Source: an uncultured Pseudomonadota bacterium
Lineage (GTDB): Bacteria > Pseudomonadota > Alphaproteobacteria > Rs-D84
NCBI GenBank assembly: GCA_900321105.1
Contig: OOHL01000004.1
Coordinates: 10,995 to 74,994 of the forward strand
Direction of reading: 5' to 3'
Length of the DNA stretch: 64,000 nucleotides
Below the pieces are notes generated by a model. The model was not told the DNA's origin and ran no database searches. It was given only the letters and a program-made list of their open reading frames with translations. Made by a program: the position numbers and the translations under genes. Below are positions 10,790-61,196 of this stretch, in pieces; the first letter of the stretch is position 1; the number at the start of each line of letters is the position of its first letter.

Positions 10790-10867
10790 AAGCTTTCTCC
10801 TTATGCTTAATCAGCATACAAAAATTATTAGTTGCAGGTCAAGCAAATAAAATCCTATAATCAAAAC

Positions 10868-12823
10868 ATGAAAGAATTCCTGGAAAACCAATACAAAAAT
10901 TTATTTTTATGGACGCCTTTTGTCTTGGCATTTGGGGCGGCATTTTATTTTTCACTTGGCAGTGAACCAGACTTTCGTTTTCCAATTCTTATCACCTTTT
11001 TAATTGGCGCGATTATTTACAAGTATAAAAATGTATTTGTACGTTCATTATTTTTGTTTTTATTTGGCTTCTTTTATGCGATGTCTTTTACACATATAAT
11101 AAACACACCACAAATAAATGATTCTTTCGGTTTTATTGATATAAACGCAACTGTTCGCGATGTTAATTTCACAAACGAATCAACACGCGTTTTATTAAGC
11201 GTGCCATCAAATCAAATTGATAAAGAATTGCCACAAAACAAAAATATAAATATTCGCGTATCTATAAAAGATACAGCCAACATACCAAATATTGGCAATA
11301 CGATTTCTGGAAAATTACATATATTTCATCCATCTGCACGATATGTTCCAAACGGATTTGATTTTGCACGTTGGGCATATTTCAAGGGAATTTCAGGCAC
11401 TGGATTTTTTCAAGATTATGAAATAATAAAATCTGAGAACAGAAATGTTCGCACATTTATCCATAATAAAGCGAAATCAGAATTAACAGATTCATTGGTA
11501 TTGGGATATAAAAACGTTATTCCTGAAATCGAAAGCAAAATTTGGAAATCTGTCGGTGTTGGACATGTCTGGTCAATCAGCGGTTTTCACATGACATTAC
11601 TTGGCGGATGGTTGTTTGCTTTGTTTTATTTATTATTTCGTGCAATTCCATATATAACAAAAAGAATACCTGCAAAATATCCTGCAATTCTCTGCGCATG
11701 GTTTGGATTAGTTTTTTATTTACTGATATCTGGGATAAGTGTTGCGACATTGCGTGCGTTCTTGATGGCAACATTAATATTTATTGCAACAATATTGGGA
11801 CGGGGCGTGTTATCTTTGCGCAACGCAGCATTAGCTTTCATCTTAATATTTTTGTTTAATCCGTATTCAGTTATGACCGCAGGCTTCCAATTATCGTTCG
11901 CTGCTATATTTGGATTGCTTTGGTTTTTTGATAACAAACAATATATCAAACATAATTTTATCGGCAAAATATTACATTATATCTATTTATCTTTTATGTC
12001 TGCCTTGGTTGCGACAATATTTACATTGCCATTTATAATTGCTCATTTTAGCTACATCCCGATTTACAGCTTGATTGGGAACATTATCCTTTTGCCGATA
12101 TTTTCTTTCGCGATTATGCCATTGGTTATGATTGGAACTTTGTTTGCAATATTTAGAAATTATTTTATATTAAACATAGCAAATAAAATATATGATTTCG
12201 CATTATCAATCGCAGAACATATATCAAATTTACCATATGCAAATATAAATATTCCTGATATTTCAAACACAGTTTTGATATTGATTATTATTGGATTGTT
12301 ATGTTTGATATTAATTGCAAAATCCGATGCCAAAAATTTATTTATAAAAAATATAAACTATGTTTTATGTATGACTAGTATATCTTTGGCAATCGTTATT
12401 TATGCAAATCAAGAACGTCCTTTGTTTTATGCAACAACCGATCACGAATTGGTCGCATTTAATGTTAATGGCAAACTGGAATTTAACAAAGCCCGTGCAT
12501 CAAAACATTATTTTGCATTTGATACATGGTATAAATTTAATAACGAAGAAAAACCATTTAAAAACAAAAGATATAAATGCGACCATGGTTTTTGTGTTTA
12601 TAAAACAAAAAATTGGAATTTAGTATATATGCAAAATTTCACATCAATATTAAATAATCTTGAAAACGTATGTAACGACAAAACAATTGATTATATTGTC
12701 ACAACTTTTGGAATTAAATCACCAAATTGTCATGGGAAAATATTGGATAATGGTTTGTTAATATATCCAAACGGAAAAATTACAAAAATCATCAATCAGC
12801 GTCCGTGGCATAATCCGCACTGA
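10868..12823 (+). CDS. comEC: ComEC/Rec2 family DNA internalisation channel
   Basis: Polytopic, with the competence-domain motif GVGHVWSISGFHMTLLGG. ATG 10868 is preferred over the upstream TTG 10832. I saw no HxHxDH metallo-beta-lactamase motif in the C-terminal part. Confidence 0.8.
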   Translation: MKEFLENQYKNLFLWTPFVLAFGAAFYFSLGSEPDFRFPILITFLIGAIIYKYKNVFVRSLFLFLFGFFYAMSFTHIINTPQINDSFGFIDINATVRDVNFTNESTRVLLSVPSNQIDKELPQNKNINIRVSIKDTANIPNIGNTISGKLHIFHPSARYVPNGFDFARWAYFKGISGTGFFQDYEIIKSENRNVRTFIHNKAKSELTDSLVLGYKNVIPEIESKIWKSVGVGHVWSISGFHMTLLGGWLFALFYLLFRAIPYITKRIPAKYPAILCAWFGLVFYLLISGISVATLRAFLMATLIFIATILGRGVLSLRNAALAFILIFLFNPYSVMTAGFQLSFAAIFGLLWFFDNKQYIKHNFIGKILHYIYLSFMSALVATIFTLPFIIAHFSYIPIYSLIGNIILLPIFSFAIMPLVMIGTLFAIFRNYFILNIANKIYDFALSIAEHISNLPYANINIPDISNTVLILIIIGLLCLILIAKSDAKNLFIKNINYVLCMTSISLAIVIYANQERPLFYATTDHELVAFNVNGKLEFNKARASKHYFAFDTWYKFNNEEKPFKNKRYKCDHGFCVYKTKNWNLVYMQNFTSILNNLENVCNDKTIDYIVTTFGIKSPNCHGKILDNGLLIYPNGKITKIINQRPWHNPH

Positions 12824-41313: not shown

Positions 41314-42024
41314 TTATAATTCTACTTTGCCATTTGTGGCGATTATGTCGCCTGTATCCATTAAAAACTTTCCACCAGCCTCGCGCACCAATAATTCGCC
41401 GGCTGCAATTTCTGCATAATCAATTGGGTCCGATATAAATGCATCCAATTTACCAGCTGCGACCCACGCCAAATCCAATGCAGGACAGCCTGTTTCCAAT
41501 GCGTTTCCAGAAATAATCGGACGAATTCCATTTGTATTATAACCAATTGTTAAATCAACAGGCTCTTTTAAATTCGATACGCGGATTTTTTCGGAATGAT
41601 ATGCGCTGAACACGTATGCGCCATTATCCGCTTCGGCATAATATAATCTTTCATCAATTGGTGAATAAACCAAAGCGATTTTTGTTTCACCTTTTGTTCG
41701 TAATGCCAAAGATATTGCAAAATGCGCATTACCACGAACAAAATTTGCCGCACCAGATAATGCCAGCACAAATTCATCGCGACCATCACCAGATTTTGAA
41801 ACATCAGGTGTCAAAAGACCCGCACTTGGACGAACCAATTGCAAATCGTTCAAAATACTTTCTTCGATTCGTGCTGATGCCTTGGCTACAAAATCGCGCG
41901 CACTTTTCAAAGATTGCTGTAAATTTTCAACTTCGCCAAAATCGTGACGCAAGCCCATTGCAGTATTTTGCAAGGCCGCGAACATTTTGTTTAATTCCGT
42001 TGAACCTTTTATCAGCAAATCCAT
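41314..42024 (-). CDS. Inositol monophosphatase/SuhB-family protein with degenerate active site
   Basis: Clear family similarity (HFAISLAL, TGCPALDLAWVAAGKLDAF, AAGELLVREAGG). However, the DPxDGT metal motif reads LALSGA. Confidence 0.7.
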   Translation of the reverse strand: MDLLIKGSTELNKMFAALQNTAMGLRHDFGEVENLQQSLKSARDFVAKASARIEESILNDLQLVRPSAGLLTPDVSKSGDGRDEFVLALSGAANFVRGNAHFAISLALRTKGETKIALVYSPIDERLYYAEADNGAYVFSAYHSEKIRVSNLKEPVDLTIGYNTNGIRPIISGNALETGCPALDLAWVAAGKLDAFISDPIDYAEIAAGELLVREAGGKFLMDTGDIIATNGKVEL

Positions 42025-42045: not shown

Positions 42046-42258
42046 TTAAAATTTAAATCCAGCAAATTTGCTTTTGAATTCTTCTGCGCGTTTACCTTTG
42101 GCGCCTTCGTTATTACGTTGACCGGTCCATGCAGGATGATTCAAATTGTCAGTAGACAAAACCAAGTCTTTTTTAACAGAAGAATACATTTTTACTGTCT
42201 TTCCGTCAGTTGTAGTGACGTTAATTTCATGATATTCTGGATGAATTCCTTTTTTCAT
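42046..42258 (-). CDS. rpmE: 50S ribosomal protein L31
   Basis: MKKGIHPEYHEINVTTTDGKTV... I saw no CxxC pair, so it is the non-zinc form. Confidence 0.9.
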   Translation of the reverse strand: MKKGIHPEYHEINVTTTDGKTVKMYSSVKKDLVLSTDNLNHPAWTGQRNNEGAKGKRAEEFKSKFAGFKF

Positions 42259-42347: not shown

Positions 42348-42860
42348 TTAATATTGCCCGATACATCCCAAATAAGAATTACCAGTGCTTTCAATAACAT
42401 TTATAAACTGGTTTTGATTTTTCCCAGAAAACAAAGCCAAAATTGTTCCTGCATCTGTTGCCAACATATCAGAAACTGTCGCAATTGAAGAATTCATTTT
42501 CTTGAAAAAACCGCTGGAAGGTCTTATTTCCGCGGCTAATAATTGATTTTTACCCTGTAAATTTGCGCTTTCTTCTGGCACAATCACCATCAATTGACAT
42601 TCTGGTGAAACAATTATTTTTTCAACGATAATGCCATCACCACCCAGCAATTCACCCCACCATCCTGTTGATTCACAAAACACAGGATAATATATAACCG
42701 CATCCTTTTTTTCATTAAATATGGCGCCAATATTCAGGTCATCAACAATAACCTCTGGCATAAGACCGGTCATGTTATTTATAACCTTGCGCGACAACTG
42801 GTAATCGTTATTACCTTTTGTTGCATGTGGCCAATAAAGAATCGGAATTTTACTCATCAC
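42348..42860 (-). CDS. Hypothetical cytoplasmic protein (170 aa)
   Basis: Lies 65 nt downstream of membrane paralog P1 on the same strand. No TM and no recognised family. Confidence 0.5.
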   Translation of the reverse strand: MMSKIPILYWPHATKGNNDYQLSRKVINNMTGLMPEVIVDDLNIGAIFNEKKDAVIYYPVFCESTGWWGELLGGDGIIVEKIIVSPECQLMVIVPEESANLQGKNQLLAAEIRPSSGFFKKMNSSIATVSDMLATDAGTILALFSGKNQNQFINVIESTGNSYLGCIGQY

Positions 42861-42925: not shown

Positions 42926-44218
42926 TTATTTTTTTATTGCTGATGCCCATTTTTTAAGGTTTTCCCACATCAAATTTAAATCATTTTTAGCTGTTTGATA
43001 ATATTTGTCTGATATTTGTATCTCGAAAAGCATTTTTGTTAATTGCGGAATCATAGTCATAAACATCGCAATAAATATACCCATCAAAACGACTGTGACA
43101 ATACTGTCATTTGCTAAAACCAAGCCATCCATCAATATTTTCGAATCGTTATTGGCAATTGCATTTTGCAAAACATTTGCGCCATCCCACGAACCAAAGG
43201 CTGCATTTAAAAACATTATTGAAAAAGTCAAAAAAACAACAGTCAATGCAATTCCAACAACAGCCTGTATCACATCTTCTATCATTTTGCGAATCGTTCG
43301 TTCACCCTTTGGGAATAATGCGAAATTTTCATCATCAAACATCCAAGCCATTAACATCAATGGCAACATAATTAAATCCATTGATAATTTCACAAATATT
43401 TCCAAGAAATAAAGAGGTATTGGCAAAAGCGCATAAAAATATAATGCCAATATCAAAAGTCCAGCAAAGAAAATTGGAACATTCGGAAATATTGGGATTT
43501 CCGCCAATATCTTATGCATATAATCACTGTTAAAAGCCATATTCATTATGGTCCATCCAACTGTCATTCCCAATCCGGTTATTTGATGAACATTTGCAAT
43601 TTCACATGTCAATTGATGTCGTAATTTTGGTGAAAAAGCCCCATATGCAGATGCATCGGCAGAAACAGATACCGGGTCCGCAATTGCAGTAGCAACCATA
43701 CATTCTGAAAAATTATTATTATCTGATACCACATAATCAAACGATGTTCCAACAACCAATGCTGGTTCTATAAAAATATTTGTTATCAATCGTGGCAATG
43801 GCAAGGCTAGCAATATAACCAAAACTGCCAATCTGAATATATACGTTCCAAAATTTCCCATGATTTTAGATGCGCTGTCCATCTTGTTATTCAAAAAACC
43901 AGACATTAAATTCCACGCAACAAAAATCGCCAGCAATGTCCCTGCCATTGGTATTATTACACGCGATAACGCCGAATAAACCTTTGGTAATAAATCAGAC
44001 ATCGAAATCATAACATCTGAAAAAATCTGGCAAGTCCAACACGATGTAAAGAAATCCAATGCATCTTTTATGTCTACTGGCGATGCACTGCGCCATATAG
44101 AAACACCAATTATACCAACACCTATCGCGGCACCACCTAAAACAAATGGCGTGACCCCCCATGCCGACATCGGCAGCAAAGCAAAAAGCCCCATAAAGAA
44201 TTTTTTTAATGCTTTCAT
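42926..44218 (-). CDS. Polytopic membrane protein, paralog P1 (VirB6/TrbL-like, tentative), CxxC subtype
   Basis: 430 aa from ATG 44218; the track ORF uses an upstream GTG at 44296. It has an N-terminal signal/TM and CWTC at 44030-44041. It also has a loop Cys pair, the Pro-helix LIMLPLMLMAWMFDDENF and a Lys-rich tail. Confidence 0.75.
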   Translation of the reverse strand: MKALKKFFMGLFALLPMSAWGVTPFVLGGAAIGVGIIGVSIWRSASPVDIKDALDFFTSCWTCQIFSDVMISMSDLLPKVYSALSRVIIPMAGTLLAIFVAWNLMSGFLNNKMDSASKIMGNFGTYIFRLAVLVILLALPLPRLITNIFIEPALVVGTSFDYVVSDNNNFSECMVATAIADPVSVSADASAYGAFSPKLRHQLTCEIANVHQITGLGMTVGWTIMNMAFNSDYMHKILAEIPIFPNVPIFFAGLLILALYFYALLPIPLYFLEIFVKLSMDLIMLPLMLMAWMFDDENFALFPKGERTIRKMIEDVIQAVVGIALTVVFLTFSIMFLNAAFGSWDGANVLQNAIANNDSKILMDGLVLANDSIVTVVLMGIFIAMFMTMIPQLTKMLFEIQISDKYYQTAKNDLNLMWENLKKWASAIKK

Positions 44219-44225
44219 AATTTTA

Positions 44226-44234
44226 ATTATACCA
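44226..44234 (-). promoter_or_regulatory. Candidate extended -10 (TGgTATAAT) for P1
   Basis: The minus strand reads TGGTATAAT, ending 7 nt before ATG 44218, with no Shine-Dalgarno between them. Confidence 0.3.
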
Positions 44235-44250
44235 CAAATTAAGTTAAATG

Positions 44251-44259
44251 TGATATAAT
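44251..44259 (+). promoter_or_regulatory. Candidate extended -10 (TGaTATAAT) for the P2-P5 operon
   Basis: TGATATAAT lies 28 nt upstream of ATG 44287. AAAGAGAG acts as the RBS. Confidence 0.4.
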
Positions 44260-44286
44260 TCAATATATAAAAAACAAAAAGAGAGA

Positions 44287-45588
44287 ATGCATACACAAAA
44301 ATCTGTGATATCGCGACTGTTTACGCGTGCCCAAATTTTGTTTGGGGTGTTTGTTTTTTGTGCTTTTTTTACTGGTTCTGCCTATGCTGATATACTTGAT
44401 GCTTACAATCTGGCACCATTTGTTCCTTTGGTATTGGAAACAATGATGAACATCGCTACATCGCTTTATAATTTCTTTGTCGGCAAAGGCGACGGGATAA
44501 TATACATATTGATTTATGCATTTCTTGCATTTTACATCGGGTTATATCTGGTAAAAATGCATTTCCCGAAAAATTGGCTTTCATTCTTGGGCTTTTCGGA
44601 CGGTGGCGAAATGTGGGATGGCAAAGCAGACGTATGGAAGATTACAGATAATATTTTAAAACCTTGTTTGCGTGCAATTATTGCTGCTTTGTTCTTATTA
44701 CAAATAAAACCAGTATACGTGACAGAATGGTTGGTCAATCCGTTTTTAGAATTCGGATCAATTTATACTCAACAGATTTTAACAAACATAAATAATACCA
44801 GCATTGAAACAGCCGATGCCCCGGCGTGTCCTGCATCAATCGAAGAAGCTGGTTGGATTTCAAAACGCAGTTGCGATTTCTTGGTTAGACCGGTTTATAT
44901 AATTTCAAAAGAAAATAACAAGGTTATCAAATATGGATTTGATTTCCTTAAAACGGGTATTCGCGGCATGATGAATTTAATACCACACGGTGGCGAAGAT
45001 TTAATGAATATTATTACTGGAATATTACTATTGTTTGCATTCATATCTGCGAATGTGTTTATGGCACTGCTTATAATTCAAGGTATATTTGATTTCTGTT
45101 TATCGCTTATCATGTATCCATTTAACGTGCTGGCATGGGTCGCAAAAAAATCAGATAAATGGTTTGATATATTGCCTCCGTTCTCACAAATAATCGATGC
45201 ATTAAAAAATCTGATTATAACTATGATTGCATGTGCATTCATATTGTGTGTAAATATTGCGGTTGTTTGTGCATTATTTAATTGGTCGTCATCTGTATTT
45301 GTTGTTGCAGCCGGTGGGGTTTCAACATCCAACGTACCGTCTATTGCTAACACTGCTTCAAATTTTGGACAACATTCGATATTGTGGATATCTTCTTTGC
45401 TAACATTTTTCCTGATGCAAAATATATTCAAAATGACCCGCGAAAGACTAGATACATATACAAAAGGCACACCACGTAAAATATACAACAATGTGACAGG
45501 GGATGCAAAAACACTTTGGGGCAAAGTTAAATCAACACCAGATACAATAAAAACTATTTTGGATACGGCAAAAAAACTAAAGAAATAA
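44287..45588 (+). CDS. Polytopic membrane protein, paralog P2 (VirB6/TrbL-like, tentative)
   Basis: 433 aa with a signal peptide ending SAYA-D. It has a loop Cys pair (CPASIEEAGWISKRSC) and the Pro-helix LIMYPFNVLAWVAKKSDKWF. The tail reads GDAKTLWGKVK...KKLKK. Confidence 0.75.
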   Translation: MHTQKSVISRLFTRAQILFGVFVFCAFFTGSAYADILDAYNLAPFVPLVLETMMNIATSLYNFFVGKGDGIIYILIYAFLAFYIGLYLVKMHFPKNWLSFLGFSDGGEMWDGKADVWKITDNILKPCLRAIIAALFLLQIKPVYVTEWLVNPFLEFGSIYTQQILTNINNTSIETADAPACPASIEEAGWISKRSCDFLVRPVYIISKENNKVIKYGFDFLKTGIRGMMNLIPHGGEDLMNIITGILLLFAFISANVFMALLIIQGIFDFCLSLIMYPFNVLAWVAKKSDKWFDILPPFSQIIDALKNLIITMIACAFILCVNIAVVCALFNWSSSVFVVAAGGVSTSNVPSIANTASNFGQHSILWISSLLTFFLMQNIFKMTRERLDTYTKGTPRKIYNNVTGDAKTLWGKVKSTPDTIKTILDTAKKLKK

Positions 45589-45591
45589 ACA

Positions 45592-46794
45592 ATGCAAGAA
45601 TTGGCAAACTCTTTAATAGATTCAGGCACACAATGTTGGACATGTCCAGTGTTTGATAATCTGTTCGCCATTGTTTCAAACACCGCCGCAGCGGCATATC
45701 AAAGATTATGTTTTTTCAGTATTGTTATATTCTGTGTTTTATTCGCATTTTATGTTTTAAATGCCGTATGGCAAAATATTAAAAATGGCGCCAAAGATTC
45801 TTTGTTCGAAAAAACATTAAGGCCTGTACTGATTAAATCTTTGGTTGCTATCTCTATTTTAGGAATGGGGCTGATTATTCCGCGATTTATTTCAACGATT
45901 ACTTTTGAACCTGTTGCAATTATGACATTACAATATTCGCGTGCACTGCTGCCACCAGATTATGTAATCCCGGCATATCAAAATGCGATAAATCTTGGAG
46001 ATGGAGGATTTTTTAATCCGGCATTGCGCGATACAATTATACAAATTCTTGAAACCTCTGTTGCAAATTTCCAAGTATATATAAAAATTGGAATTGCCAT
46101 TATTGACAAGGCCTTTTCTATAGAAGCCCTTTTTGGTATTGGTTCTTTGATAAAACATATCATCATATGTTATATTGGAATCTTTTTAACATACAATTTT
46201 GTAAAATTATTTATAAAATATTCATTCTGTTTTATGGATATAATTGTCGCAATGGCAATGTTTGCGTTTTTCTTTCCATTGTCTGTAATATTATTTATAT
46301 TCCGTGGTGCAACCGATGCGCCAGGCTGGATGAAAGATTTGGGTAAAAATCTTGGTGGCGGACAAATCAAAAAACTGATAAATGCGATAGTCTCGGTTGC
46401 ATCAACAATTTTAACTTATACTATAATTATGCTGATTATCAAAGGATTCTTGGACGCCAATGGTGTTGACACAAATTCCGTACAAAATACATCCGAATCT
46501 ATATTTGATTTTAATTTGGAAAATTCCAGTGCAATGCAAATCACATTTGCTGGCGCTATCGTTCTGGTTTATGTAATAAATTATATTGCAGATCAAATTC
46601 CAAAAATCACTGAAAAAATATTGACCGTATTTAATGTGAAACAAGAAGATGCTATATCCAAAGAAATGGGCGAAAATACATTTCAATTAACAAAAAACAT
46701 AGCCAACACAGCCAAAGATTTAGCAAAAACAGTTATTAATCCGGATAAAAAAACTGATGAAAAATCAAAAGAAGAAAGCAAAGATAAAAAATGA
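45592..46794 (+). CDS. Polytopic membrane protein, paralog P3 (VirB6/TrbL-like, tentative), CxxC subtype
   Basis: 400 aa. CWTC at 45634-45645 lies near the N-terminus, with no signal peptide. It has the Pro-helix AFFFPLSVILFIFRG and the tail KKTDEKSKEESKDKK. Confidence 0.75.
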   Translation: MQELANSLIDSGTQCWTCPVFDNLFAIVSNTAAAAYQRLCFFSIVIFCVLFAFYVLNAVWQNIKNGAKDSLFEKTLRPVLIKSLVAISILGMGLIIPRFISTITFEPVAIMTLQYSRALLPPDYVIPAYQNAINLGDGGFFNPALRDTIIQILETSVANFQVYIKIGIAIIDKAFSIEALFGIGSLIKHIIICYIGIFLTYNFVKLFIKYSFCFMDIIVAMAMFAFFFPLSVILFIFRGATDAPGWMKDLGKNLGGGQIKKLINAIVSVASTILTYTIIMLIIKGFLDANGVDTNSVQNTSESIFDFNLENSSAMQITFAGAIVLVYVINYIADQIPKITEKILTVFNVKQEDAISKEMGENTFQLTKNIANTAKDLAKTVINPDKKTDEKSKEESKDKK

Positions 46795-48251
46795 TAAAAA
46801 AATGGCTTATTGAAAAAGGATTAAAATTTTTGATGGGCGCAATTGCGTTGGGTATCGGTATTTGGTATCTAAGTCATTCACTTGGTAGTGCATCTCTTTC
46901 TTACACCAGCGTAGATGCATTTATGAAGCAAATAGGTGCGACCGATGGGAACGCCACATCTGTTAATGGATGTTTCCTTTGTAAATACATGGGTGACTTA
47001 TTTGCGGTCTTGGGACGCGCAACAGAAATGTTTTGGAACGGCATCGTTCATAATTTATGGATATTGATGGCAATCGGTTTTGGGATATTTATCATATTCC
47101 ACACATTACAATTTTTCCGTGAACAATCATCATCAAAGGATATAAAAGATTTAACCGACAACGAAATCAAACTTGATTTCAAAAAATGGTTTGACAAGGT
47201 TTGGAAAACAGCCGCACGTATTATGGTTGCTGGCGCATTTATTGGGGTTCTAAATTGGACTGGAACAGCCTCGCTGAAAACAGTCACAAATCTTACTGTC
47301 ACACCAGTTTTGTACATCGGAACAAATCTATCAATGTTGGCAACTGGTGTAATAAGTGGTGCAAAATGTGAAATCCCAGACCAAACCGACAAAGCAGAAG
47401 ATATATTAACCCCTGTCTTGCATCCTTTTATGTGCGAAATGGGGAATTTAAATACAGTTATGTTAGCTGGTGCAGGTGGCGGATTTGCACTGATGAATTA
47501 TGCGTGGCTTGATTTAAATGATAATGTTGGCGGTGCATTTACCTGGCTGGCAGGACTGATGCTGGTAATAATGTTTTTAGTCATAGGATTTGATTTATTG
47601 TTCCAGATATTAAGCGTATTTTTTAAATTGATATTTATCATAATATTTATGCCGATTCTTATAGCAGCCGCTGCATTTGAACAAGTGTGGAAACTTGCTA
47701 AAAATTTATTAAATTCAGCCATAGACAAATTGGTAAATTCCGCGGTAGATATCATAAAAATCAGTCTTAAAATTATTATAACCTATGCCATTGTTTATTT
47801 TGCTGCCGATCAGTATTTTCCTGGACCGGCTGATGGATTTACCAACATATTGCCCCCATTGGTTTCTAAAATAAGCCCATCAAACATGGACGCAAAAACA
47901 ATGTCTGTTATGAATGCATTTTCAAATTGTGAAAAAGTTGCACTGATTGACGGCAAAATGGACAAAGAAAAATTCACACAATGTTTCAAGACTCAGAAAA
48001 ACATAGTTGAACAAAGATATCCTGGTGCATTTGATTTTATGGACGATGGATTTGAATTCTTGATGTTTATGATTGGTGTATTCTTCCTATATTTTTGGGT
48101 TATATCACCAAAGATTGAAAAACTGCTTGGCAAAGAAAGCACCGAAACATTTGATTATGGTCAATGGCTTAAAGATGCTGGAAAGAAAGCATATAATGCC
48201 CCAACAGATATTTATATGAAAGTTCGCGAAAAAATGAAAGAAGGAAAATAA
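46791..48251 (+). CDS. Polytopic membrane protein, paralog P4 (VirB6/TrbL-like, tentative), CxxC subtype
   Basis: 486 aa, overlapping P3 by ATGA. CFLC lies at 46971-46982. It has a loop Cys pair (CEIPDQ...FMC) and the Pro-helix IIFMPILIAAAAF. Confidence 0.75.
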   Translation: MIKKWLIEKGLKFLMGAIALGIGIWYLSHSLGSASLSYTSVDAFMKQIGATDGNATSVNGCFLCKYMGDLFAVLGRATEMFWNGIVHNLWILMAIGFGIFIIFHTLQFFREQSSSKDIKDLTDNEIKLDFKKWFDKVWKTAARIMVAGAFIGVLNWTGTASLKTVTNLTVTPVLYIGTNLSMLATGVISGAKCEIPDQTDKAEDILTPVLHPFMCEMGNLNTVMLAGAGGGFALMNYAWLDLNDNVGGAFTWLAGLMLVIMFLVIGFDLLFQILSVFFKLIFIIIFMPILIAAAAFEQVWKLAKNLLNSAIDKLVNSAVDIIKISLKIIITYAIVYFAADQYFPGPADGFTNILPPLVSKISPSNMDAKTMSVMNAFSNCEKVALIDGKMDKEKFTQCFKTQKNIVEQRYPGAFDFMDDGFEFLMFMIGVFFLYFWVISPKIEKLLGKESTETFDYGQWLKDAGKKAYNAPTDIYMKVREKMKEGK

Positions 48252-48252
48252 A

Positions 48253-49542
48253 ATGCAGATTCGTAAATTTTTAAAATTATTTTTGATTTGCATTTGTTGC
48301 GCAACTGCTTTCATTGGTTATTCATATGCAGCAGGAAACATTCCACATGGTGATATCGGTGAATATGGCAATTGGATAACATCTGATAACATGGAAAAAT
48401 ATAACGAAATTTTGTCTAGTGATGCAAAAAATTTCCAACAAGATTTCCAAACAAATCTGCATTCAACAAATTTTGTTCCAATTGAAGTAAAAATCGGATT
48501 GGTGTTTATGAAAGCGTTATCATCAATTGATTATGTTCTACAAACATCTCTGGTTCGATTTGTTATATGGTTTTTATTTATAATGTATGCATTTTGGGTT
48601 GGATTGACTGCATATAAACTAATTCGTGAATCATCTGATTATAAAACCGTTTTATATAATGTTTTTATCAAAGGGATCACCATTGTCGCATGGATAATAA
48701 TTTTAAATTATGGTCCCGCAAAAATATTTACTATGATAATAACGCCTATTATCTCACTGGGTGTTTATTTGTCTGATTTTATATTAGATGCTGTTGCCCA
48801 AACATATAATGTGAATATTCCAGACACATGTGCAACAATACATCAATATGTTAATTCAAATGTACCAGATAAATTGTTAATAAACCCGGATGCCGCGGCT
48901 AATATAATGTGTTTACCGGCAAGGATTTCTGTATATTTTTATCATGCAACCGCATCTGCATTTGAATGGATGGTTAACGGATTTGGTAACAGTGCAACAA
49001 TGGTGGTAGTTGGTGCTGTATGTGTTATTATGTTTATTGGATGCATATTCAAATATGCTTTCATGACATTGGGTGTTGTTGCAGATTTGTTCTTAACTTT
49101 GTTGATGTTACCATTTACCGCTCTTGCAGAATCAATGCCTGAAATAAAAGAAGACAATTATGCCGGACAAATATTTTCTGGATTATTAAAAGTATTTAAT
49201 GCACAAGATTATAAATTATCGGGCATAATATCTAAATTTATAAACGCAACAATATATTTTGTATCTTTAGCAATTATAATTGCAATATGTGCGGCATTAC
49301 TAACAAATATTGTATCGATAAATAACAATGACGAATATCATGTTGGTTCTGCAATGACAATGATATTATGTGGCGCATTGGTATTCTATTTGGCTGGTCA
49401 GGCTGAAAAACTGGCTGAAGACCTTGGTGGAAAAATTGATAATTCATTTGGGAAACAATTACAAGGTGATACAAAAACACTTTGGGGCGATGTAAAAAAG
49501 CTTGGTTCTATGGCATATAAAGATTGGTTAAAGAAAAAATAA
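48253..49542 (+). CDS. Polytopic membrane protein, paralog P5 (VirB6/TrbL-like, tentative)
   Basis: 429 aa with a signal peptide ending SYAA-G. It has a loop Cys pair (CATIHQ...IMC) and the Pro-helix LLMLPFTALAES. The tail reads GDTKTLWGDVKK...KKK, like P2. Confidence 0.75.
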   Translation: MQIRKFLKLFLICICCATAFIGYSYAAGNIPHGDIGEYGNWITSDNMEKYNEILSSDAKNFQQDFQTNLHSTNFVPIEVKIGLVFMKALSSIDYVLQTSLVRFVIWFLFIMYAFWVGLTAYKLIRESSDYKTVLYNVFIKGITIVAWIIILNYGPAKIFTMIITPIISLGVYLSDFILDAVAQTYNVNIPDTCATIHQYVNSNVPDKLLINPDAAANIMCLPARISVYFYHATASAFEWMVNGFGNSATMVVVGAVCVIMFIGCIFKYAFMTLGVVADLFLTLLMLPFTALAESMPEIKEDNYAGQIFSGLLKVFNAQDYKLSGIISKFINATIYFVSLAIIIAICAALLTNIVSINNNDEYHVGSAMTMILCGALVFYLAGQAEKLAEDLGGKIDNSFGKQLQGDTKTLWGDVKKLGSMAYKDWLKKK

Positions 49543-49544
49543 GA

Positions 49545-51614
49545 TTAAATAAATTTCACAAAATCACGCGCTACATTTTTTATACCACGTGTTTTAAAAG
49601 CAATTGTTAGTGTCTTGTCATTTTCAGCAATAACAACACCAGTACCCATTTCTGCATGCATAACCATTTTACCAACAACAGATTCTGATTTAAATTTTGG
49701 TTTTGATGGCACTGCTTTAGGTTCACTGTATGTTCGTCCACCATTAAGACTGACGAAACGTTTATCAATTTCATTTATAAAACGCGATGGTAATTGATAA
49801 AGCCGCTGACCAAATACAGTTCGCACCATAGCATTAGTAATTATTGCACGTGTTTTTGCGCGTGTAATTGCAACATATGCTAAACGACGTTCTTCTTCTA
49901 TATCGCTGTCTGATTTATTTTCATTTGGAAATATACCCTCTTCCCAGGCCGGCAAGAACACTGTATCAAATTCCAATCCTTTGGCGGCATGTATTGTCAT
50001 TATTGAAACCAGATTTTTATCGTCTGTTTCATTATCATTATCATCAGTCATCATCAATGCCGCGTGTTCCAAAAATTCAGGAAGTGTATTATATTTTGCA
50101 ACAACACTGTTTATCAATTCACGAATATGCTCTAATCTTTCACCGGCATCAACATCTTTAGATTCGCGCCACATTTTTAAATATCCAGATTTTTCCAATA
50201 AATTTTGCACTGCATCTTTTGGTGGCAATGCCTGCCAATCAAAATCAAATGCAGATAAAAATTCATCCGCGGCCGTTTGTTGTTTCGATGATAATTTGAT
50301 TAGTTTTAATGCATCCATTAAACTTTTACCAGTTTCACGCAATTTAGCAATTGCACCTTCGCCAAATCCACGACGCGGTTTTGAAATAATACGCTCAAAG
50401 GAAACATCATCAAATTGGTAAACCAACAAACGCGTATAAGCGATTGCATCACGAATTTCGGCCCTGTCATAGAATTTTGTTGCACCAATCAAACGATATG
50501 GAATTTTACGCGAAGTAAATTCTTCTTCAAAAGTTCTGGATAGAGATCCCATACGAATCAGTATTGCAAACGATGAATAATTATTATTTGCATTTCGTGA
50601 TATTGTATCGGAAACAAATCGCGCCTCATCCCAATCAGATGGCAATGTTAAAACATAAACAGGTTCACCGTTTGATTCAACATCTGATGCGCGCAAATCT
50701 TTACCCAGACGTCCCATATTATTTTTAATTAATGAATTAGCCGCGCCCAGAATATTCGGCGTGCTGCGATAATTTATTTCCAAACGAATTATCTTTGCCC
50801 CAGGATAAGTTTTTTCGAATTCCAAAATATTTCTTATTTCCGCACCGCGCCACGAATAAATAGACTGATCATCATCGCCGACACAGCAAATATTTGGTTT
50901 TTCCTTATCAGCAGTTAATATTTTTAATAAATTCATTTGTGCCACGTTAGTATCTTGAAATTCATCGACCAATATATATTTAAATTGGTTTTGATATTTA
51001 CGTAAAATTTCTGAATTTTGTTCGAACAACCGCAAAACAAATAAAATAATATCACCAAAATCAATCGCACCCAGTTTCTGCAGTTCCGCATTATATGCAT
51101 TTAATATTTTTAACGCGATTGGTGAAAGGGACATTTTTTCAAAATCACTGCAACCTTTGTCTTTGATATTTGAAATTCTTTCCACCCAATCAGACGGATT
51201 AAATTCCTTGGCATCCAATGCCATATTTGTTATTACACGTTTAAGGACAGCCTTTTGGTCATCTTCGCCATAAATCAGGAAATCATGACGCAATCCAGCC
51301 GCCGCATAATTGCTGCGCAGAATGCGCAAACACATTGAATGAAAAGTCCCCATCCACAAATCACCACAAAGATGTGCTATTTCTTGATATTGTGCAACAC
51401 GAAAACGCATTTCATTCGCGGCTTTGTTAGTAAAAGTCAAAGCCAATATTTGCCATGGATATGCCGCACCCGTATATAAAATATGTGCAACACGCGATGT
51501 TAAAACGCGCGTTTTACCGGTCCCAGCCCCGGACAACACTAAAAGAGGTCCGTCCAGTGTTGTGACAGCCTGTTTTTGTGCATCGTTCAAATCAGACATG
51601 TAATCCATAGGCAT
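49545..51614 (-). CDS. uvrD: UvrD/PcrA/Rep-family ATP-dependent DNA helicase
   Basis: Walker A reads VLSGAGTGKT. Also has DEFQDTN and C-terminal helicase motifs (VSIMTIHAAKGLEF, RRLAYVAITRA). Confidence 0.9.
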   Translation of the reverse strand: MPMDYMSDLNDAQKQAVTTLDGPLLVLSGAGTGKTRVLTSRVAHILYTGAAYPWQILALTFTNKAANEMRFRVAQYQEIAHLCGDLWMGTFHSMCLRILRSNYAAAGLRHDFLIYGEDDQKAVLKRVITNMALDAKEFNPSDWVERISNIKDKGCSDFEKMSLSPIALKILNAYNAELQKLGAIDFGDIILFVLRLFEQNSEILRKYQNQFKYILVDEFQDTNVAQMNLLKILTADKEKPNICCVGDDDQSIYSWRGAEIRNILEFEKTYPGAKIIRLEINYRSTPNILGAANSLIKNNMGRLGKDLRASDVESNGEPVYVLTLPSDWDEARFVSDTISRNANNNYSSFAILIRMGSLSRTFEEEFTSRKIPYRLIGATKFYDRAEIRDAIAYTRLLVYQFDDVSFERIISKPRRGFGEGAIAKLRETGKSLMDALKLIKLSSKQQTAADEFLSAFDFDWQALPPKDAVQNLLEKSGYLKMWRESKDVDAGERLEHIRELINSVVAKYNTLPEFLEHAALMMTDDNDNETDDKNLVSIMTIHAAKGLEFDTVFLPAWEEGIFPNENKSDSDIEEERRLAYVAITRAKTRAIITNAMVRTVFGQRLYQLPSRFINEIDKRFVSLNGGRTYSEPKAVPSKPKFKSESVVGKMVMHAEMGTGVVIAENDKTLTIAFKTRGIKNVARDFVKFI

Positions 51615-52383: not shown

Positions 52384-54669
52384 CTAACTGTCACTTGCTA
52401 TACAAACATTACTGCTGTTTGCAGTATATCCAGATGGGCACGATGTCAAGCATGAAGAATTATATAAATAATAGCCAGTTGGACACGATGAAACACATGT
52501 AGAACCACTGACTAAATAACCTTCTTTGCAAACACATCTGTCGTTGACATAACGATCTTGGTCATCCCCCGCATCTGCCCGATCTGTCAAAGTAAAATAG
52601 GAATTATCAGGACAAAGCAATGATTGATAAAAGATTTCCGAAATACCACTTATCAATTCTGGTGCTTGCAATCTTGATAATGCATCGACCTGTGCCGGAG
52701 ACAATATTGCAGAATACGCTTCTTCATCACTATCGGTCTGCAAATATTCCTTCTTTATTTCCAACATCTTGTCGCCCATATCTTTATCATATGCAAACAC
52801 AGCATAACCACATGTCAGGGCTACATTATAACACGCACCTGTCATAACTTTATATATATTGTTCACAGATGCTGATGTTGTCCATGATGTTATTTGACTA
52901 TTTTGTTGGTTATAACAATCCTGAATATCGGCCATACAGGTTGATGCATAATCAGAAATGATTCTTGATTGTGCGGCCTTGATATTTACCATTGCGCGTT
53001 GAATATAATTTATAACAACTTCGTTGTATGGGTTATAGTTAGAATTTTTACCAGATTGTATATAAGTATAATCTTGACATTTGTCCAAAACGGCACGACA
53101 AAGCCCACCATCTTTGACACTGTTACCTGTTCCAATTTTTTGCATTAAATAATTAACGATACACGCACCATCGTGTTCTGGACACGTTGTATTGCCAGAC
53201 GATGCTTTTATAAAATCAGCTGTAATGGATGTATTATTATAACCGGTCATAAAATCAGTTATATTTGCAATATTTTTACCCAACACAACTTCGCCGTTTT
53301 CGTCAATATATCTTTTGGTTGGGTCCAAACATTTTACATAATTATCGCCACAAACCATATCATCCAGCATACACTTTTCAAGCGCACCAACACAGCCTTT
53401 GATATCATATTCATTTTTATTTTGCAGAACCGCCAAACGCGCCTTTTGCAACATTAAATTTGCACTGCGCACATTGTTTTTCAACGTATCATTTAATTTA
53501 ACCAGACCCTGTTCATACGCTACACAGTCTTTATCAATTGCCAAATCATAGTTTCCAGAAATTTGATCTTCGGTTCCACCTGCATCCTTGCAACGATTAA
53601 GAACTGTTTTACAACGTTTTTTAGCCTCTGTATAAAGTGCCTTGCCACGTTTAGATGAAATATCATTGCCGCCTGAATTGAACATATCAAGCGAGAACAA
53701 ATCCGAAGAATCAGATGAAAAATCAAAATCCATATCCAACAAAGAATCTGTCGATGAAGACGCTGTCAATGTTGTAGAAGAAGTCGGATCTTTTATCATA
53801 TCGGCAATATCATCCAACAAAGAACGTGTTTGCGTATTATCTTTGGTTTTACCCATTTCAACTTCTGCTTCGGTTGCAGACATAATCGCACGAATTTCAT
53901 CCGCAGACAAACCAACATAACGGATACGTTGTGCAACATCATTTAATTCAACATTTGCATCTTCGACTGCTTTTTGAGCCTTGGCATATTTAGCCAAATT
54001 CGCAGAACAAGAACATCTTTTTTGATTTGTATCCACAACCGCACAGAATTGATCCATACATTCATTGTATTGTTGCTGACATGTACTGTTTAAATCGGAT
54101 GTTTTTTCCAGAATATCTTTTGCCTCTGCCAAAGATTCTGCCGTTATTGTCTTTTGTTGTTTCTGAGAACCAAATATAGATGCACGCGATTGAATACCAC
54201 GAACCTGTTCATCAATATTAGAACCTGTTTGAATGCCTGTGTTTCCGATTGTTGCACGACCACCAACTTCCGCAGTAGATGCACGCAAAGTTATACCTGC
54301 ACGACGAACAGCCGCAGTATTGTTAATGCTGGCTGCTTCGGTACGTGCACTGCGCCCGACAGTATTTACAGCATCACTTAAAGTTTGACGTGTTCCGGTT
54401 TTGCGATTATTTACAGACCGTGAAACAACATTTGTTGATGGTTTGGTATTTGTTGTTGAAACAGGTGCCGTACGCGATACCGTGCGTGAAATCGTCGTTG
54501 CACGTTCATCGGTGCGCGCACTGCGATTTTTAACAGTTGTTTCCACCTTTTGTTCGACATCTTCAACTGAATTTTTTGTTGGAATTGCGCGGGATATAGA
54601 ACCATCCGCCGCAAAAGCATTTGCGACACACAACAGCCCGGCGAAAAGATATAACGAAATCTTTCTCAT
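52384..54669 (-). CDS. Large cysteine-rich secreted protein, paralog A (761 aa)
   Basis: It has a signal peptide (LLCVANAFA-A) and a ~150-aa basic R/S/T/N-rich low-complexity region. A Cys-rich body follows, opening with CQQQYNECMDQFC...KRCSC. I count 29 Cys, with nine C-x6-C units. The C-terminus CVCKEGYLVSGSTCVSSCPTGYYLYNSSCLTSCPSGYTANSSNVC is furin/EGF-like. Confidence 0.8.
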   Translation of the reverse strand: MRKISLYLFAGLLCVANAFAADGSISRAIPTKNSVEDVEQKVETTVKNRSARTDERATTISRTVSRTAPVSTTNTKPSTNVVSRSVNNRKTGTRQTLSDAVNTVGRSARTEAASINNTAAVRRAGITLRASTAEVGGRATIGNTGIQTGSNIDEQVRGIQSRASIFGSQKQQKTITAESLAEAKDILEKTSDLNSTCQQQYNECMDQFCAVVDTNQKRCSCSANLAKYAKAQKAVEDANVELNDVAQRIRYVGLSADEIRAIMSATEAEVEMGKTKDNTQTRSLLDDIADMIKDPTSSTTLTASSSTDSLLDMDFDFSSDSSDLFSLDMFNSGGNDISSKRGKALYTEAKKRCKTVLNRCKDAGGTEDQISGNYDLAIDKDCVAYEQGLVKLNDTLKNNVRSANLMLQKARLAVLQNKNEYDIKGCVGALEKCMLDDMVCGDNYVKCLDPTKRYIDENGEVVLGKNIANITDFMTGYNNTSITADFIKASSGNTTCPEHDGACIVNYLMQKIGTGNSVKDGGLCRAVLDKCQDYTYIQSGKNSNYNPYNEVVINYIQRAMVNIKAAQSRIISDYASTCMADIQDCYNQQNSQITSWTTSASVNNIYKVMTGACYNVALTCGYAVFAYDKDMGDKMLEIKKEYLQTDSDEEAYSAILSPAQVDALSRLQAPELISGISEIFYQSLLCPDNSYFTLTDRADAGDDQDRYVNDRCVCKEGYLVSGSTCVSSCPTGYYLYNSSCLTSCPSGYTANSSNVCIASDS

Positions 54670-55803: not shown

Positions 55804-58254
55804 TTAATATCTTCTGTTACGTGCAGCCTCGTCATCCTTTATCTGTCGGCGTAAATTATTTATACCTGCAGTATAATGATTCAAACAATCGTCACAATTA
55901 GTATTGTCTACTGTATCACATAACTTTTTATCTTTTTCTTTTGCAACCTGTCTTGTATCAGACAACAAAGCATTCATTATTTTAATATCTTTCTCTATTT
56001 GCGATTTATCATCTTTATTATTGCATTTTTTACCTTCTTTTGTCCTGTCCCATAAAACACTATAATTTTCGCTAAAACATTCTACAGCACTTGCATCATC
56101 TTTACCGGCACAATTACGATATTGGGATGATTTTGAACTGCTGCTGCCAAGTAAACCAGATGAAGAAGACGAATCATCATCTTTTGCGCCGGCGGCTTGC
56201 AATTGCGCAGTCAACGTAGCCTTTTCAAGTTGGGTCTTTAAACGACGCAGCGTCGCAGATAAATATTCATATTGTTTATACATCTGTTGTGAAATAACCG
56301 TTGTCTTCAGCGCCAGCATTTCTTTGATTTCACCCAGTTTTGTATTCATATGCTCATTATATTCTTTAAGTCCTTGATCATACGCAACAACACCGATCTT
56401 CCAGCTTGCTTTACCATCATCTGATATTAATTGGCTACAAACTCTTCCGTTTGATTTATAACCTTCCTTACACCATTTCACTATTGTACAGTTACCTTGA
56501 CTATCCTTTTCTGCCCAAAGCACATTTGGATCTGTTTTTTGTAATTCGTCCGTGCAATCATTTGGGAATCTTTTCTTAATTTCATCCGATGCACCAGATT
56601 TTCCAACATTATATGGATGTATATCGCAAATCGCATAGGTTGGATTTATATACCCACAATCAGAATCTTCTTTTGTATAATCACGTTTTCCTGCTTCTAT
56701 CTTTTCAACACATAACGCGGAACCTTTTACAGGGACAACCTTGCTTAACATAGCCTTTTCCAAAATATCTTTGTTATCATCTGCATCGCAATAATCCAAC
56801 GGTTTTACACCAGAACGCAATTCCTTGCTTGGTTCTTTTTGGTGCAACCATGTATCCAGTTTATCAATATCAACCAACCCGGCACCGTTTTTATTCTTGG
56901 TTCTGCGTCTGAACAAAGCAGATGCATCCAGCGCACCCGATGCGCACGCAACAACTGTTGTGTTACCATTTGATGTGTCACCTTCCGCATCAATCCAACC
57001 TTCATAAACTTCGTTATCATTTGATAAAATTTTCAATAGCGTACAAGGACGACAATTTGTCCCGCTTTTTTTGTAACTACACTTATTTATACAAGAATTA
57101 TATGCACTAGTATTACCGTCAACGCACCCATCTTGATTACAACTGTTCTTTTCCCAACACATATCCACACATTCAGAATCAGGTTTAAAACCACCTGTAC
57201 ACACCTGTGGTATACCTTTATAACTGCTGTCTATATCGGTATATTCTATTTTACCGCCGCTGACACGAGGGCACATATATTGTCCCCAACGATTACATGA
57301 ATTATTTAACATCATATAAATATCAGACAAATTAACACCAACCAATATTGCCAATTCCAATGCATCATATGTTTTGTTAATTACTTCATCGTATGGGTCC
57401 AGGAATTCAGTTGCCAATTCACGCCATTTTTTCACACGTTTTGGACCGGTGCAATTGTTCCCGCGTGCATCACAACCCGCGTATTCAAATGCAGTATTCA
57501 TTACCGTTTTCAAAGTTTTCATTTGAACTTCTGCATTTTCAAGTTCGGTCATAACCTGGCCAGTAATTTTCTGACGTTCCAAAACATCAGTTGAAATACC
57601 ACGATTTATCGCATCTTGTTGATATGCGGATATGCCAGCCTCGTTTTCCTTGGCCGCATCAGTTGCCGCAGATTTTACACTTTCCAATGCCGCCGCATTT
57701 TGCGCGGCCTGTTGTGCCAATGCGTTTTGTAATTGTGCCGCAGATTCAGCCTGTTGCTGGGCCATTTGTTGTTGCATCTGCTGCATTTGATATTGCATTT
57801 CCTGCATTTGTTGTTGCGATTGTTGTGCCGCTGCGGCCGCCGCAGCCTGTTGTGCCGCCGCGTTTTGTTCATTTATTTTTGCCGTGGACGATGCAACCAA
57901 TTGCGCAGACATATATTGCACCAAATCATTGCCATATTGTTTACATGTATCATTAGATTGAACACATCCAGCCACAATCGCCGACGCAATCGACATATCC
58001 GAACATCCACCATTTGCACATTTTGGTTGTGCACAGCGCAAAACAACCGCATTACAGTTTCCAAAATCAACCTTGGCCGCAGTATTTGTATCATAACGAC
58101 CATTTGTCATTGATGCCCACTGATTATTATTCGCATTTGACGGATTAAAAGCGGTTAAATTAGACCCAGATGTTGTCGCAACAGTCCCCGCCGCATTTGC
58201 ACAAAGCGGCGCAAAACAAAGCATCATTGTTAAAATGCGCGATAAATTTTTCAT
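55804..58254 (-). CDS. Large cysteine-rich secreted protein, paralog B (816 aa from ATG 58254)
   Basis: It has a signal peptide (MMLCFAPLCANA-A). The Cys-rich body opens with CNAVVLRCAQPKCANGGC. A Gln/Ala-rich coiled-coil-like tract follows, then many Cys knots, including CKEGYKSNGRVC. I count 36 Cys. Confidence 0.8.
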   Translation of the reverse strand: MKNLSRILTMMLCFAPLCANAAGTVATTSGSNLTAFNPSNANNNQWASMTNGRYDTNTAAKVDFGNCNAVVLRCAQPKCANGGCSDMSIASAIVAGCVQSNDTCKQYGNDLVQYMSAQLVASSTAKINEQNAAAQQAAAAAAAQQSQQQMQEMQYQMQQMQQQMAQQQAESAAQLQNALAQQAAQNAAALESVKSAATDAAKENEAGISAYQQDAINRGISTDVLERQKITGQVMTELENAEVQMKTLKTVMNTAFEYAGCDARGNNCTGPKRVKKWRELATEFLDPYDEVINKTYDALELAILVGVNLSDIYMMLNNSCNRWGQYMCPRVSGGKIEYTDIDSSYKGIPQVCTGGFKPDSECVDMCWEKNSCNQDGCVDGNTSAYNSCINKCSYKKSGTNCRPCTLLKILSNDNEVYEGWIDAEGDTSNGNTTVVACASGALDASALFRRRTKNKNGAGLVDIDKLDTWLHQKEPSKELRSGVKPLDYCDADDNKDILEKAMLSKVVPVKGSALCVEKIEAGKRDYTKEDSDCGYINPTYAICDIHPYNVGKSGASDEIKKRFPNDCTDELQKTDPNVLWAEKDSQGNCTIVKWCKEGYKSNGRVCSQLISDDGKASWKIGVVAYDQGLKEYNEHMNTKLGEIKEMLALKTTVISQQMYKQYEYLSATLRRLKTQLEKATLTAQLQAAGAKDDDSSSSSGLLGSSSSKSSQYRNCAGKDDASAVECFSENYSVLWDRTKEGKKCNNKDDKSQIEKDIKIMNALLSDTRQVAKEKDKKLCDTVDNTNCDDCLNHYTAGINNLRRQIKDDEAARNRRY

Positions 58255-58319
58255 CTCTCTTATGCACAATTTTATCATAAAAAAAGATTGGTGTAAAGGG
58301 TGAAGATATATTTGTTTGC

Positions 58320-60996: not shown

Positions 60997-61196
60997 AATT
61001 TTCTCCTGTATATTCACAATACGCAAAAACACCCTGATTTCAGGCAATTTTGCGCAAAATCTTCCTTCACTTATTGAAATTATAACATTTTTAGTTAATT
61101 CTGTAAACAATAAAAATAAAGCATGCGGTATAAAATCCGCCATATTTTATTGGACATAAAAATGTAAAATACTATAATCGCAAAAAAGAGAAAAAA

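Follow-up and report, generated by a model that had tools for sequence, protein, structure and literature searches.

VirB6 is a polytopic inner-membrane protein that serves as the central platform (stalk base or protochannel) of type IV secretion systems (T4SSs), and in the Rickettsiales vir homolog (rvh) T4SS the array of its paralogs, RvhB6, lies downstream of rvhB3-rvhB4. At the centre of the R388 machine VirB6 is pentameric, as is DotA in Dot/Icm (PMC12857230). Rickettsia carries five RvhB6 paralogs of 674-1154 amino acids (aa) that are ~80% divergent, have a VirB6/TrbL domain averaging 413 aa and are recognised by PF04610 and COG3704, with the T4SS genes of this genus dispersed over islets (PMC2653234). 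Multicopy VirB6 is among the rvh hallmarks, together with duplicated VirB4, VirB8 and VirB9 and the lack of VirB5 (PMC11077975). Why Rickettsiales keep four or five extremely divergent VirB6 copies has been a puzzle since 2009. Here we analyze five genes, P1-P5, that lie side by side in a 64-kb stretch of DNA from an uncultured alphaproteobacterium of the order Rs-D84; this stretch, the window, corresponds to bases 10009-74008 of a 351-kb ENA scaffold. A reading of the sequence alone (the sequence-only reading) had called their products VirB6/TrbL-like. We conclude that P1-P5 are very probably members of the TrbL/VirB6 superfamily and form a divergent 'CWxC' clade outside the curated models.

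The five proteins had been taken for paralogs on the basis of common motifs. Orthologs of each gene were taken from 17 GTDB species loci, and the resulting family alignments were compared with each other by hhalign. Eight of the ten P1-P5 pairs aligned near full length and colinearly at 88.6-98.1% probability, including P1 with P3 (98.1%), P4 (93.2%), P5 (89.8%) and P2 (89.7%) as well as P2 with P5 (96.5%). This is contrasted by values of ≤4.2% for unrelated polytopic proteins from the window (FtsW, MraY, ComEC, a Na/H exchanger and AcrB) that served as negative controls. P2 gave 36% with P3 and no match with P4, and is therefore joined to the group through P1 and P5. In addition, blastp connected P1 and P3 (8e-11 over ~400 aa at 21% identity) and gave weaker links to the other paralogs, and a P1 profile retrieved P3-family representatives at 1e-16 to 1e-6 from a library of 1.84 billion proteins. 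As judged by these alignments, P1-P5 are shown to be real, anciently diverged and very distant paralogs.

In the same library the P1 profile found 285 proteins at E≤1e-3, and 28 of its 71 distant full-length relatives match the PF04610 TrbL family, the best at 1.2e-8. The TrbL match of one relative, P0287 (residues 401-517), falls inside the stretch that aligns with P1 (residues 234-526), and the TrbL core therefore maps to about residues 225-345 of P1. Other relatives are encoded in arrays of four genes (g1-g4) in RF32 gut Alphaproteobacteria. The cut-off for PF04610 is 25.9 bits, and RF32 array proteins encoded by g2 reach 38.4, 36.6 and 28.1 bits; the one with 38.4 bits is a bona fide Pfam TrbL protein. 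When families built around the RF32 arrays were compared by hhalign with P1, P3, P4 and P5, probabilities of 89-98% were obtained. With g4 all four gave 95.9-98.1% (P3 96.4%, P5 96.7%); with the g2 family P4 gave 89.3% and P3 gave 79.2%, and tblastn with the g2 protein reached P4 orthologs at 34% identity over 80 aa. Profile homology to TrbL/VirB6 members was thus found over the same region of the proteins. Most of g1-g4 have P1 as their best match, and for this reason P1-P5 and g1-g4 could not be paired as one-to-one orthologs.

P1 and P2 belong to the least similar sub-groups of the array. AlphaFold (AF2) models of P1 (predicted local distance difference test, pLDDT, 72) and P2 (pLDDT 64), which were based on separate alignments, were compared with the PDB by Foldseek. 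For the P1 model the R388 TrwI/VirB6 chains occupy ranks 2-5 (probability 0.98-1.00, target-normalised template modelling (TM) score 0.42-0.49, ~330 aligned columns), and for the P2 model TrwI chains occupy ranks 1-5, 7 and 8 (probability 0.99-1.00, TM score 0.41-0.56). With both models TrwI/VirB6 chains were the sole PDB matches with a probability of 0.89-1.00, all others reaching ≤0.30, and the TM scores to these chains were 0.37-0.56 over up to ~360 alignment columns. The predicted models of P1 and P2 show the VirB6 fold as it is seen in solved T4SSs, at Foldseek E-values of 0.009-0.1. By the profile links and this modeling P1-P5 are shown to be remote homologs of VirB6 with a matching predicted fold.

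The architecture of the five proteins also agrees with that of TrwI from R388 and VirB6 from A. tumefaciens, which are likewise polytopic with a large central loop and a Pro helix after the loop. In a hydropathy scan each of P1-P5 has at least five hydrophobic helices, a central hydrophilic loop of 66-105 aa (~160 aa for P4 by a crude scan) and a Lys-rich tail. Every motif quoted in the sequence-only reading is present in the translations, and its two blocks common to all five are in register in profile-profile alignments. Specifically, Pro152 in the xEP block and Pro286 in the Pro helix of P1 are both matched by a Pro in each of the other paralogs, Gly253 is matched by a Gly in all four, and Gly157 by a Gly in P2, P4 and P5. 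The loop Cys pair of P1 (C173/C205) is in register with those of P4 and P5. An N-proximal C-W/F-x-C motif, which was absent from the earlier list, is common to P1, P3 and P4. The likeness drawn between the Pro helix and the VirB6 core was partly borne out: in the best local hhalign alignment to Agrobacterium VirB6 the same segment faces the IGPLIL..IFD core, but this direct alignment is not significant. Canonical VirB6 differs from P1-P5 in being a single-copy protein of ~295 aa encoded inside the virB1-11 operon, in lacking the CWxC motif and the loop Cys pair, and in showing no significant direct sequence or profile similarity to them. TrwI/VirB6, the best and sole high-probability structural match of the P1 and P2 models, is pentameric in the solved machine.

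Distant relatives of P1-P5 are found in tandem arrays of two genes (locus L018), five genes (L019), three genes (L020) and four genes each (L021-L023). Like P1-P5 these arrays belong to the CWxC-type clade, are translationally coupled and are situated in the chromosome among housekeeping genes. Their proteins are longer (418-1318 aa) owing to large N-terminal periplasmic domains or to fusion with a Peptidase_M23 domain (LytM-type cell-wall hydrolase), which some array members carry. In the last RF32 array gene Peptidase_M23 is fused to the VirB6-like core in products of 999-1318 aa (L021:10001-13000; L023:10291-14247); going by its domain composition, this fusion is a predicted VirB1-like cell-wall hydrolase activity joined to VirB6. 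In L019 (6361-17362), from an AT-rich lineage, a gene for an 86-aa two-helix membrane protein stands ahead of a tandem array of exactly five VirB6-like genes (770, 781, 857, 474 and 650 aa) between suf genes and gidA, and in the first four products CWxC comes behind a large periplasmic domain at the N-terminus. The same 86-aa gene precedes the two VirB6-like copies of L018, and no counterpart of it was found in Rs-D84.

Unlike P1-P5, the RF32 arrays have four copies, include members that Pfam recognises as TrbL, and lie near VirB9, VirB10 and VirB11. In L021 and L022 the arrays are ~6 kb from VirB11 and a giant VirB10, and L099, another RF32 genome, encodes VirB9-VirB10-VirB11. Taken together, transitive homology, fold and the genomic company of the relatives agree, and for this reason we place P1-P5 in the TrbL/VirB6 superfamily. 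The VirB6/TrbL-like call is upheld by the transitive link to Pfam TrbL-passing proteins and by the TrwI/VirB6 fold match of the P1 and P2 models, and the other option raised with it, a new family of envelope-spanning proteins, is largely set aside in favor of a divergent clade of a known superfamily that has no curated model. This clade comprises >800 sequence clusters that are invisible to Pfam and NCBIfam.

The RF32 genomes themselves contain a chromosomal T4SS island in which the gene order is VirB9 (CagX), a Bflower/RHS-repeat protein of 1205 aa, a giant VirB10 of 1481 aa with Bflower repeats and TrbI, and VirB11 (L099:335-10963, L021:19309-23000, L022:14868-18746 and L028-L107), with 'Azospirillum sp. 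51_20', Candidatus Scatocola and others as carriers. A GTDB scan seeded with RF32 VirB11 returned 198 relatives, of which the best 80 are 80-87% identical and all come from RF32-type genomes, which makes the scan uninformative on Rs-D84. Our literature search found no paper tying RF32 or Rs-D84 to type IV secretion.

The closest proteins to P1-P5 come from Candidatus Enterousia and from alphaproteobacterial metagenome-assembled genomes of animal guts. Enterousia is assigned by GTDB to the order Rs-D84 (PMC12306168), and the NCBI listing of the genus is Alphaproteobacteria incertae sedis. Rs-D84 genomes are <1 Mb, lack the tricarboxylic acid cycle, respiration and standard transporters, and are predicted to be those of obligate symbionts or parasites that depend on partner cells (PMC12306168). 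We determined the conservation of the array in 17 related species loci (L001-L017) and two further contigs (L112 and L113). P1-P5 together with orf170, a gene directly downstream of P1, have the same order and orientation in 15 of the 17 loci, which is every contig long enough to hold them. Identities among orthologs are 46-89% for P1, 51-90% for P2, 36-83% for P3, 45-81% for P4, 34-78% for P5 and 46-91% for orf170. The block P5-P4-P3-P2/P1-orf170-rpmE-suhB is also intact in L112 and L113, even though in L113 the flank past P5 is rearranged from uvrD to mraY-ftsW-murG. The only constant neighbors of the module are thus orf170, rpmE and suhB. Since gene order and open reading frames (ORFs) are kept across Rs-D84 loci, the array is a core, selected module and neither a mobile element nor a remnant; comparative synteny shows the five genes to be a fixed chromosomal core module of the order, with strict co-retention in the genomes sampled.

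This conservation pattern bears on the idea that P1-P5 are a decaying remnant of the mating-pair-formation genes of an integrated conjugative element. The isolation of the array from other T4SS genes and the high divergence of the paralogs would fit such an origin. However, no long-enough locus lacks an intact, syntenic copy of any of the five ORFs, down to 46% identity and with many invariant residues; no integrase, relaxase or repeat boundaries were found around the array, its flanks are housekeeping genes, and its GC content is close to that of the surrounding window. A remnant is therefore effectively refuted, and we regard it as extremely improbable.

We favor as probable the interpretation that P1-P5 constitute an rvh-like multicopy VirB6 platform, possibly a heteropentamer. 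Like RvhB6a-e they are five chromosomal copies with extreme divergence (~80% in Rickettsia; ~21% identity here), and the whole P1-P5 proteins are about as long as the average RvhB6 VirB6/TrbL domain. Rickettsia, like Rs-D84, is also a reduced-genome, partner-dependent alphaproteobacterium, with T4SS genes in islets among housekeeping genes. Unlike RvhB6, P1-P5 have no N- or C-terminal extensions, are bordered by orf170, rpmE and uvrD and not preceded by rvhB3-rvhB4, include one divergent copy, carry the N-proximal CWxC and are not recognised by PF04610; their host belongs to Rs-D84 and not to Rickettsiales, of which rvh has been described as an order-level signature. The 'rvh-like' label of the sequence-only reading is thus not established; it fits the multicopy, tandem and highly divergent VirB6, but not the taxon, the RvhB6 extensions or an upstream virB3-virB4. 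By taxon, protein size and gene context P1-P5 do not belong to rvh proper, and an rvh-like T4SS is plausible but unproven.

In the proposed platform P1-P5 would assemble together, in near-equimolar amounts, into one hetero-oligomer. Given that VirB6 (TrwI) and DotA form pentamers, its most economical version would be a heteropentamer of 1:1:1:1:1 composition. Translational coupling would supply P2-P5 in a fixed ratio, with P1 made from a divergent promoter. The Lys-rich tails would be cytoplasmic, and both the N-proximal CWxC segment and the central loop with its Cys pair would lie in the periplasm; the periplasmic placement of CWxC is suggested because in P4 and the L019 proteins the CWxC-type motif follows a signal peptide with no membrane helix between. 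The platform would serve an rvh-like T4SS encoded in the chromosome, with the genes for its ATPases and outer parts elsewhere in the <1 Mb genome, and a partner-dependent bacterium without standard transporters may use it for macromolecule exchange with, or attachment to, another cell. That P1-P5 work within a T4SS at all we hold to be only slightly better than an even proposition.

Several observations weigh against this interpretation. P1-P5 have no direct match to Pfam TrbL (PF04610) or NCBIfam VirB6 even at E≤10, and none of the five attains the PF04610 gathering score of 25.9 bits. When each family was compared by hhalign with five Agrobacterium-type VirB6 sequences, probabilities were ≤9%. 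The Foldseek E-values given above are modest and the models are of medium confidence; because of these E-values the fold match is supporting evidence and not proof on its own. One Trp was reported to be essential in VirB6 (PMC2653234), and it is not clearly conserved here, the Trp of the Pro helix being present in profile alignments only in P1 and P2. RF32 arrays contain four copies and not five, which weakens a strict 'five copies = pentamer' argument. No VirB4, VirD4 or VirB8-11 was found in the 64-kb window, in 7 kb beyond its right end or in the 17 related loci, and the published Rs-D84 genome survey never mentions any secretion system (PMC12306168). Further direct comparisons were likewise negative: a 98-sequence superfamily profile gave ≤9% by hhalign with the same five Agrobacterium-type VirB6 sequences, the P1-P5 hidden Markov models had no match to VirB6 of the Ti plasmid (pTi; the canonical query was 100% identical to the pTi gene), and the P1 profile matched no PDB sequence.

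The lack of a direct Pfam or NCBIfam match, Foldseek E-values >0.001 and the non-significant direct hhalign to canonical VirB6 would also be expected if P1-P5 were an unrelated transporter or permease family whose VirB6 likeness is a by-product of their helical, hydrophobic nature. We consider this very improbable, as the transitive link runs through proteins that pass the Pfam TrbL cut-off with the match inside the aligned region, one and the same PDB family is the sole high-probability match of two independent models, and unrelated polytopic proteins stay at ≤4.2% in the same hhalign test. Transporter families were rejected because none surfaced in any search.

The search for T4SS genes covered ~71 kb, including 7 kb past the right end of the window, which is about 8% of the roughly 0.9 Mb genome, and every sizeable window ORF was scanned with Pfam or looked up. 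In agreement with the sequence-only reading of the window, no VirB/VirD4 Pfam domain occurs anywhere in this region, and a VirB4 ATPase or other mating-pair-formation genes were not encountered there. A tblastn search with pTi VirB1-11 and RF32 VirB10/VirB11 gave no match in the window or in L001-L017. The same result would be obtained if P1-P5 were a stand-alone VirB6-derived envelope complex that operates in Rs-D84 in the absence of VirB4, VirD4 and an outer-membrane core. It might act, for instance, as an inner-membrane/periplasmic conduit or as a platform for adhesion, by which metabolites or macromolecules would be acquired from a partner cell, perhaps with orf170 or the Cys-rich proteins described below. 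Such a complex would fit the absence of T4SS genes from every Rs-D84 locus examined, the location of the module among housekeeping genes with its few constant neighbors, and the presence of three large secreted Cys-rich proteins 3-12 kb away. It would also fit the Rs-D84 survey, in which transporters are reported to be missing, many membrane proteins are unexplained and secretion systems go unmentioned (PMC12306168). On the other hand, the region inspected is a small part of the genome, T4SS genes are scattered in Rickettsia (PMC2653234) and lie among housekeeping genes in RF32, and the related RF32 arrays do adjoin VirB9-11. A stand-alone complex therefore appears to us unlikely. In addition, a VirB6 homolog that functions without VirB4 is not known.

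Returning to the multicopy platform, the formation of a heteropentamer by P1-P5 is possible but doubtful. Somewhat more doubtful still is its strict form, in which P1-P5 are the five different protomers of one obligate, asymmetric VirB6 heteropentamer, a natural version of the VirB6/DotA platform. In the boldest form of this obligate reading the Enterousia platform would work without a canonical VirB4-driven T4SS, as a minimal envelope conduit with which a <1 Mb epibiont would tap its partner cell. An obligate heteropentamer, if true, would explain the approximately five divergent VirB6 copies in Rickettsia, Rs-D84 and the L019 lineage. With a bare VirB6 domain in five copies, four of them coupled, the array is therefore a clean system for testing this idea and a minimal model for multicopy VirB6. 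Multicopy VirB6 arrays, taken as a Rickettsiales signature, are also present in Rs-D84 and RF32, two groups of gut-associated Alphaproteobacteria that are common in humans and livestock. Machinery for cell-cell interaction has been postulated for Rs-D84, with its <1 Mb genomes and no standard transporters, and the module is a concrete candidate for it.

The five ORFs are listed in Table 1 together with their neighbors. All were found where the sequence-only reading had put them, P1 on the minus strand and P2-P5 on the plus strand, except for the start of P1. The GTG at 44296 chosen earlier is 26 codons too long; all 12 aligned orthologs begin at MKALKK, as does the database protein P0001 (430 aa, 100% identity and coverage), and we therefore assign the start to the ATG at 44218. 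It follows that P1 and P2 diverge across a 68-bp spacer and do not overlap. The close spacing of the other genes was as described, P2 and P3 being 3 nt apart, P3 and P4 overlapping by 4 nt and P4 and P5 being 1 nt apart, and by this spacing P2-P5 are shown to be translationally coupled. A candidate -10/-35-like site lies in the spacer at 44254-44226(-), but in a promoter and terminator consensus scan site counts equaled the expectation from shuffled sequence. For this reason the promoters in the spacer are presumed, and a single P2-P5 operon and its boundaries are suggested from spacing only. GC skew is positive only over the P2-P5 block (44001-50000) and negative across the rest of the window, which matches the orientation of these genes, some of the few on the plus strand where most others are on the minus strand.

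Table 1. Coordinates of the VirB6-like array and of neighboring features, in window positions.
Feature	Coordinates	Strand	Product	Sequence features	Basis and remarks
comEC	10832-12823	+	ComEC competence channel	Competence + DUF4131	
suhB-like	41314-42024	-			
rpmE	42046-42258	-			
orf170	42348-42860	-	soluble protein, 169/170 aa	GWWGELLG and DMLAT..GT.LALF, invariant	directly downstream of P1
P1	42926-44218	-	VirB6-like paralog, 430 aa	SCWTC (C60/C63); loop Cys pair C173/C205; PLPR 140-143; IPIFPN 242-246; Pro helix MLPLMLMAW 284-292	ORF, start from orthologs and P0001; most conserved of the five
P1-P2 spacer	44219-44286		68 bp, AT-rich		read from sequence; both promoters presumed inside
P2	44287-45588	+	VirB6-like paralog, 433 aa	signal-peptide-like N-terminus; no CWxC; own loop Cys pair; Pro helix MYPFNVLAW; C-terminal GDAKTLWGKVK	ORF
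P3	45592-46794	+	VirB6-like paralog, 400 aa	no N-terminal signal-like segment; CWTC (C15/C18) almost at start; no loop Cys pair	ORF
P4	46791-48251	+	VirB6-like paralog, 486 aa	CFLC (C61/C64); loop Cys pair C193/C215; extra hydrophilic insert before last hydrophobic helix	ORF, ATGA overlap with P3
P5	48253-49542	+	VirB6-like paralog, 429 aa	signal-peptide-like N-terminus; loop Cys pair C193/C220; C-terminal GDTKTLWGDVKK	ORF; fastest evolving of the five
Cys-rich protein gene	52384-54669	-	761 aa	signal-peptide-like N-terminus	
Cys-rich protein gene	55804-58278	-	824 aa	signal-peptide-like N-terminus	
Cys-rich protein gene	58354-61143	-	929 aa		

The orf170 gene may be co-transcribed with P1, as had been proposed. 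It is strongly conserved and is syntenic in 17 of 17 loci and also in L112 and L113. Its product has no hydrophobic segment in the hydropathy scan, no Pfam or NCBIfam match at E≤10 and no PDB sequence match in a profile search, and no homolog turned up outside the Rs-D84 group. With hhalign values of ≤1.2% it is not a paralog of P1-P5.

The flanks of the array are as claimed earlier, with rpmE and a suhB-like gene on one side and uvrD and dnaQ on the other. Housekeeping genes of the window comprise mraY, ftsW, murG, a class A penicillin-binding protein gene, suhB, rpmE, uvrD, dnaQ, gyrA and leuS, and further pyk, pyrG, def, fmt, comEC and a TolC-membrane fusion protein-AcrB pump. The window also has a few genes without an assigned function. 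Three of these, beyond the array, encode secreted Cys-rich proteins with 29-38 cysteines and no Pfam domain, and rplU and rpmA sit between them. Signal-peptide-like N-termini are present on at least the 761- and 824-aa proteins. By blastp (1e-10) the 761-aa protein is a paralog of the 929-aa protein, and the 824-aa protein is not detectably related to them. The comEC gene, which has been kept in a <1 Mb genome, is also found close to the L113 array. Just past base 64000 of the window lies a complete rRNA operon with 16S, tRNA, 23S and 5S (L026:1573-6502).

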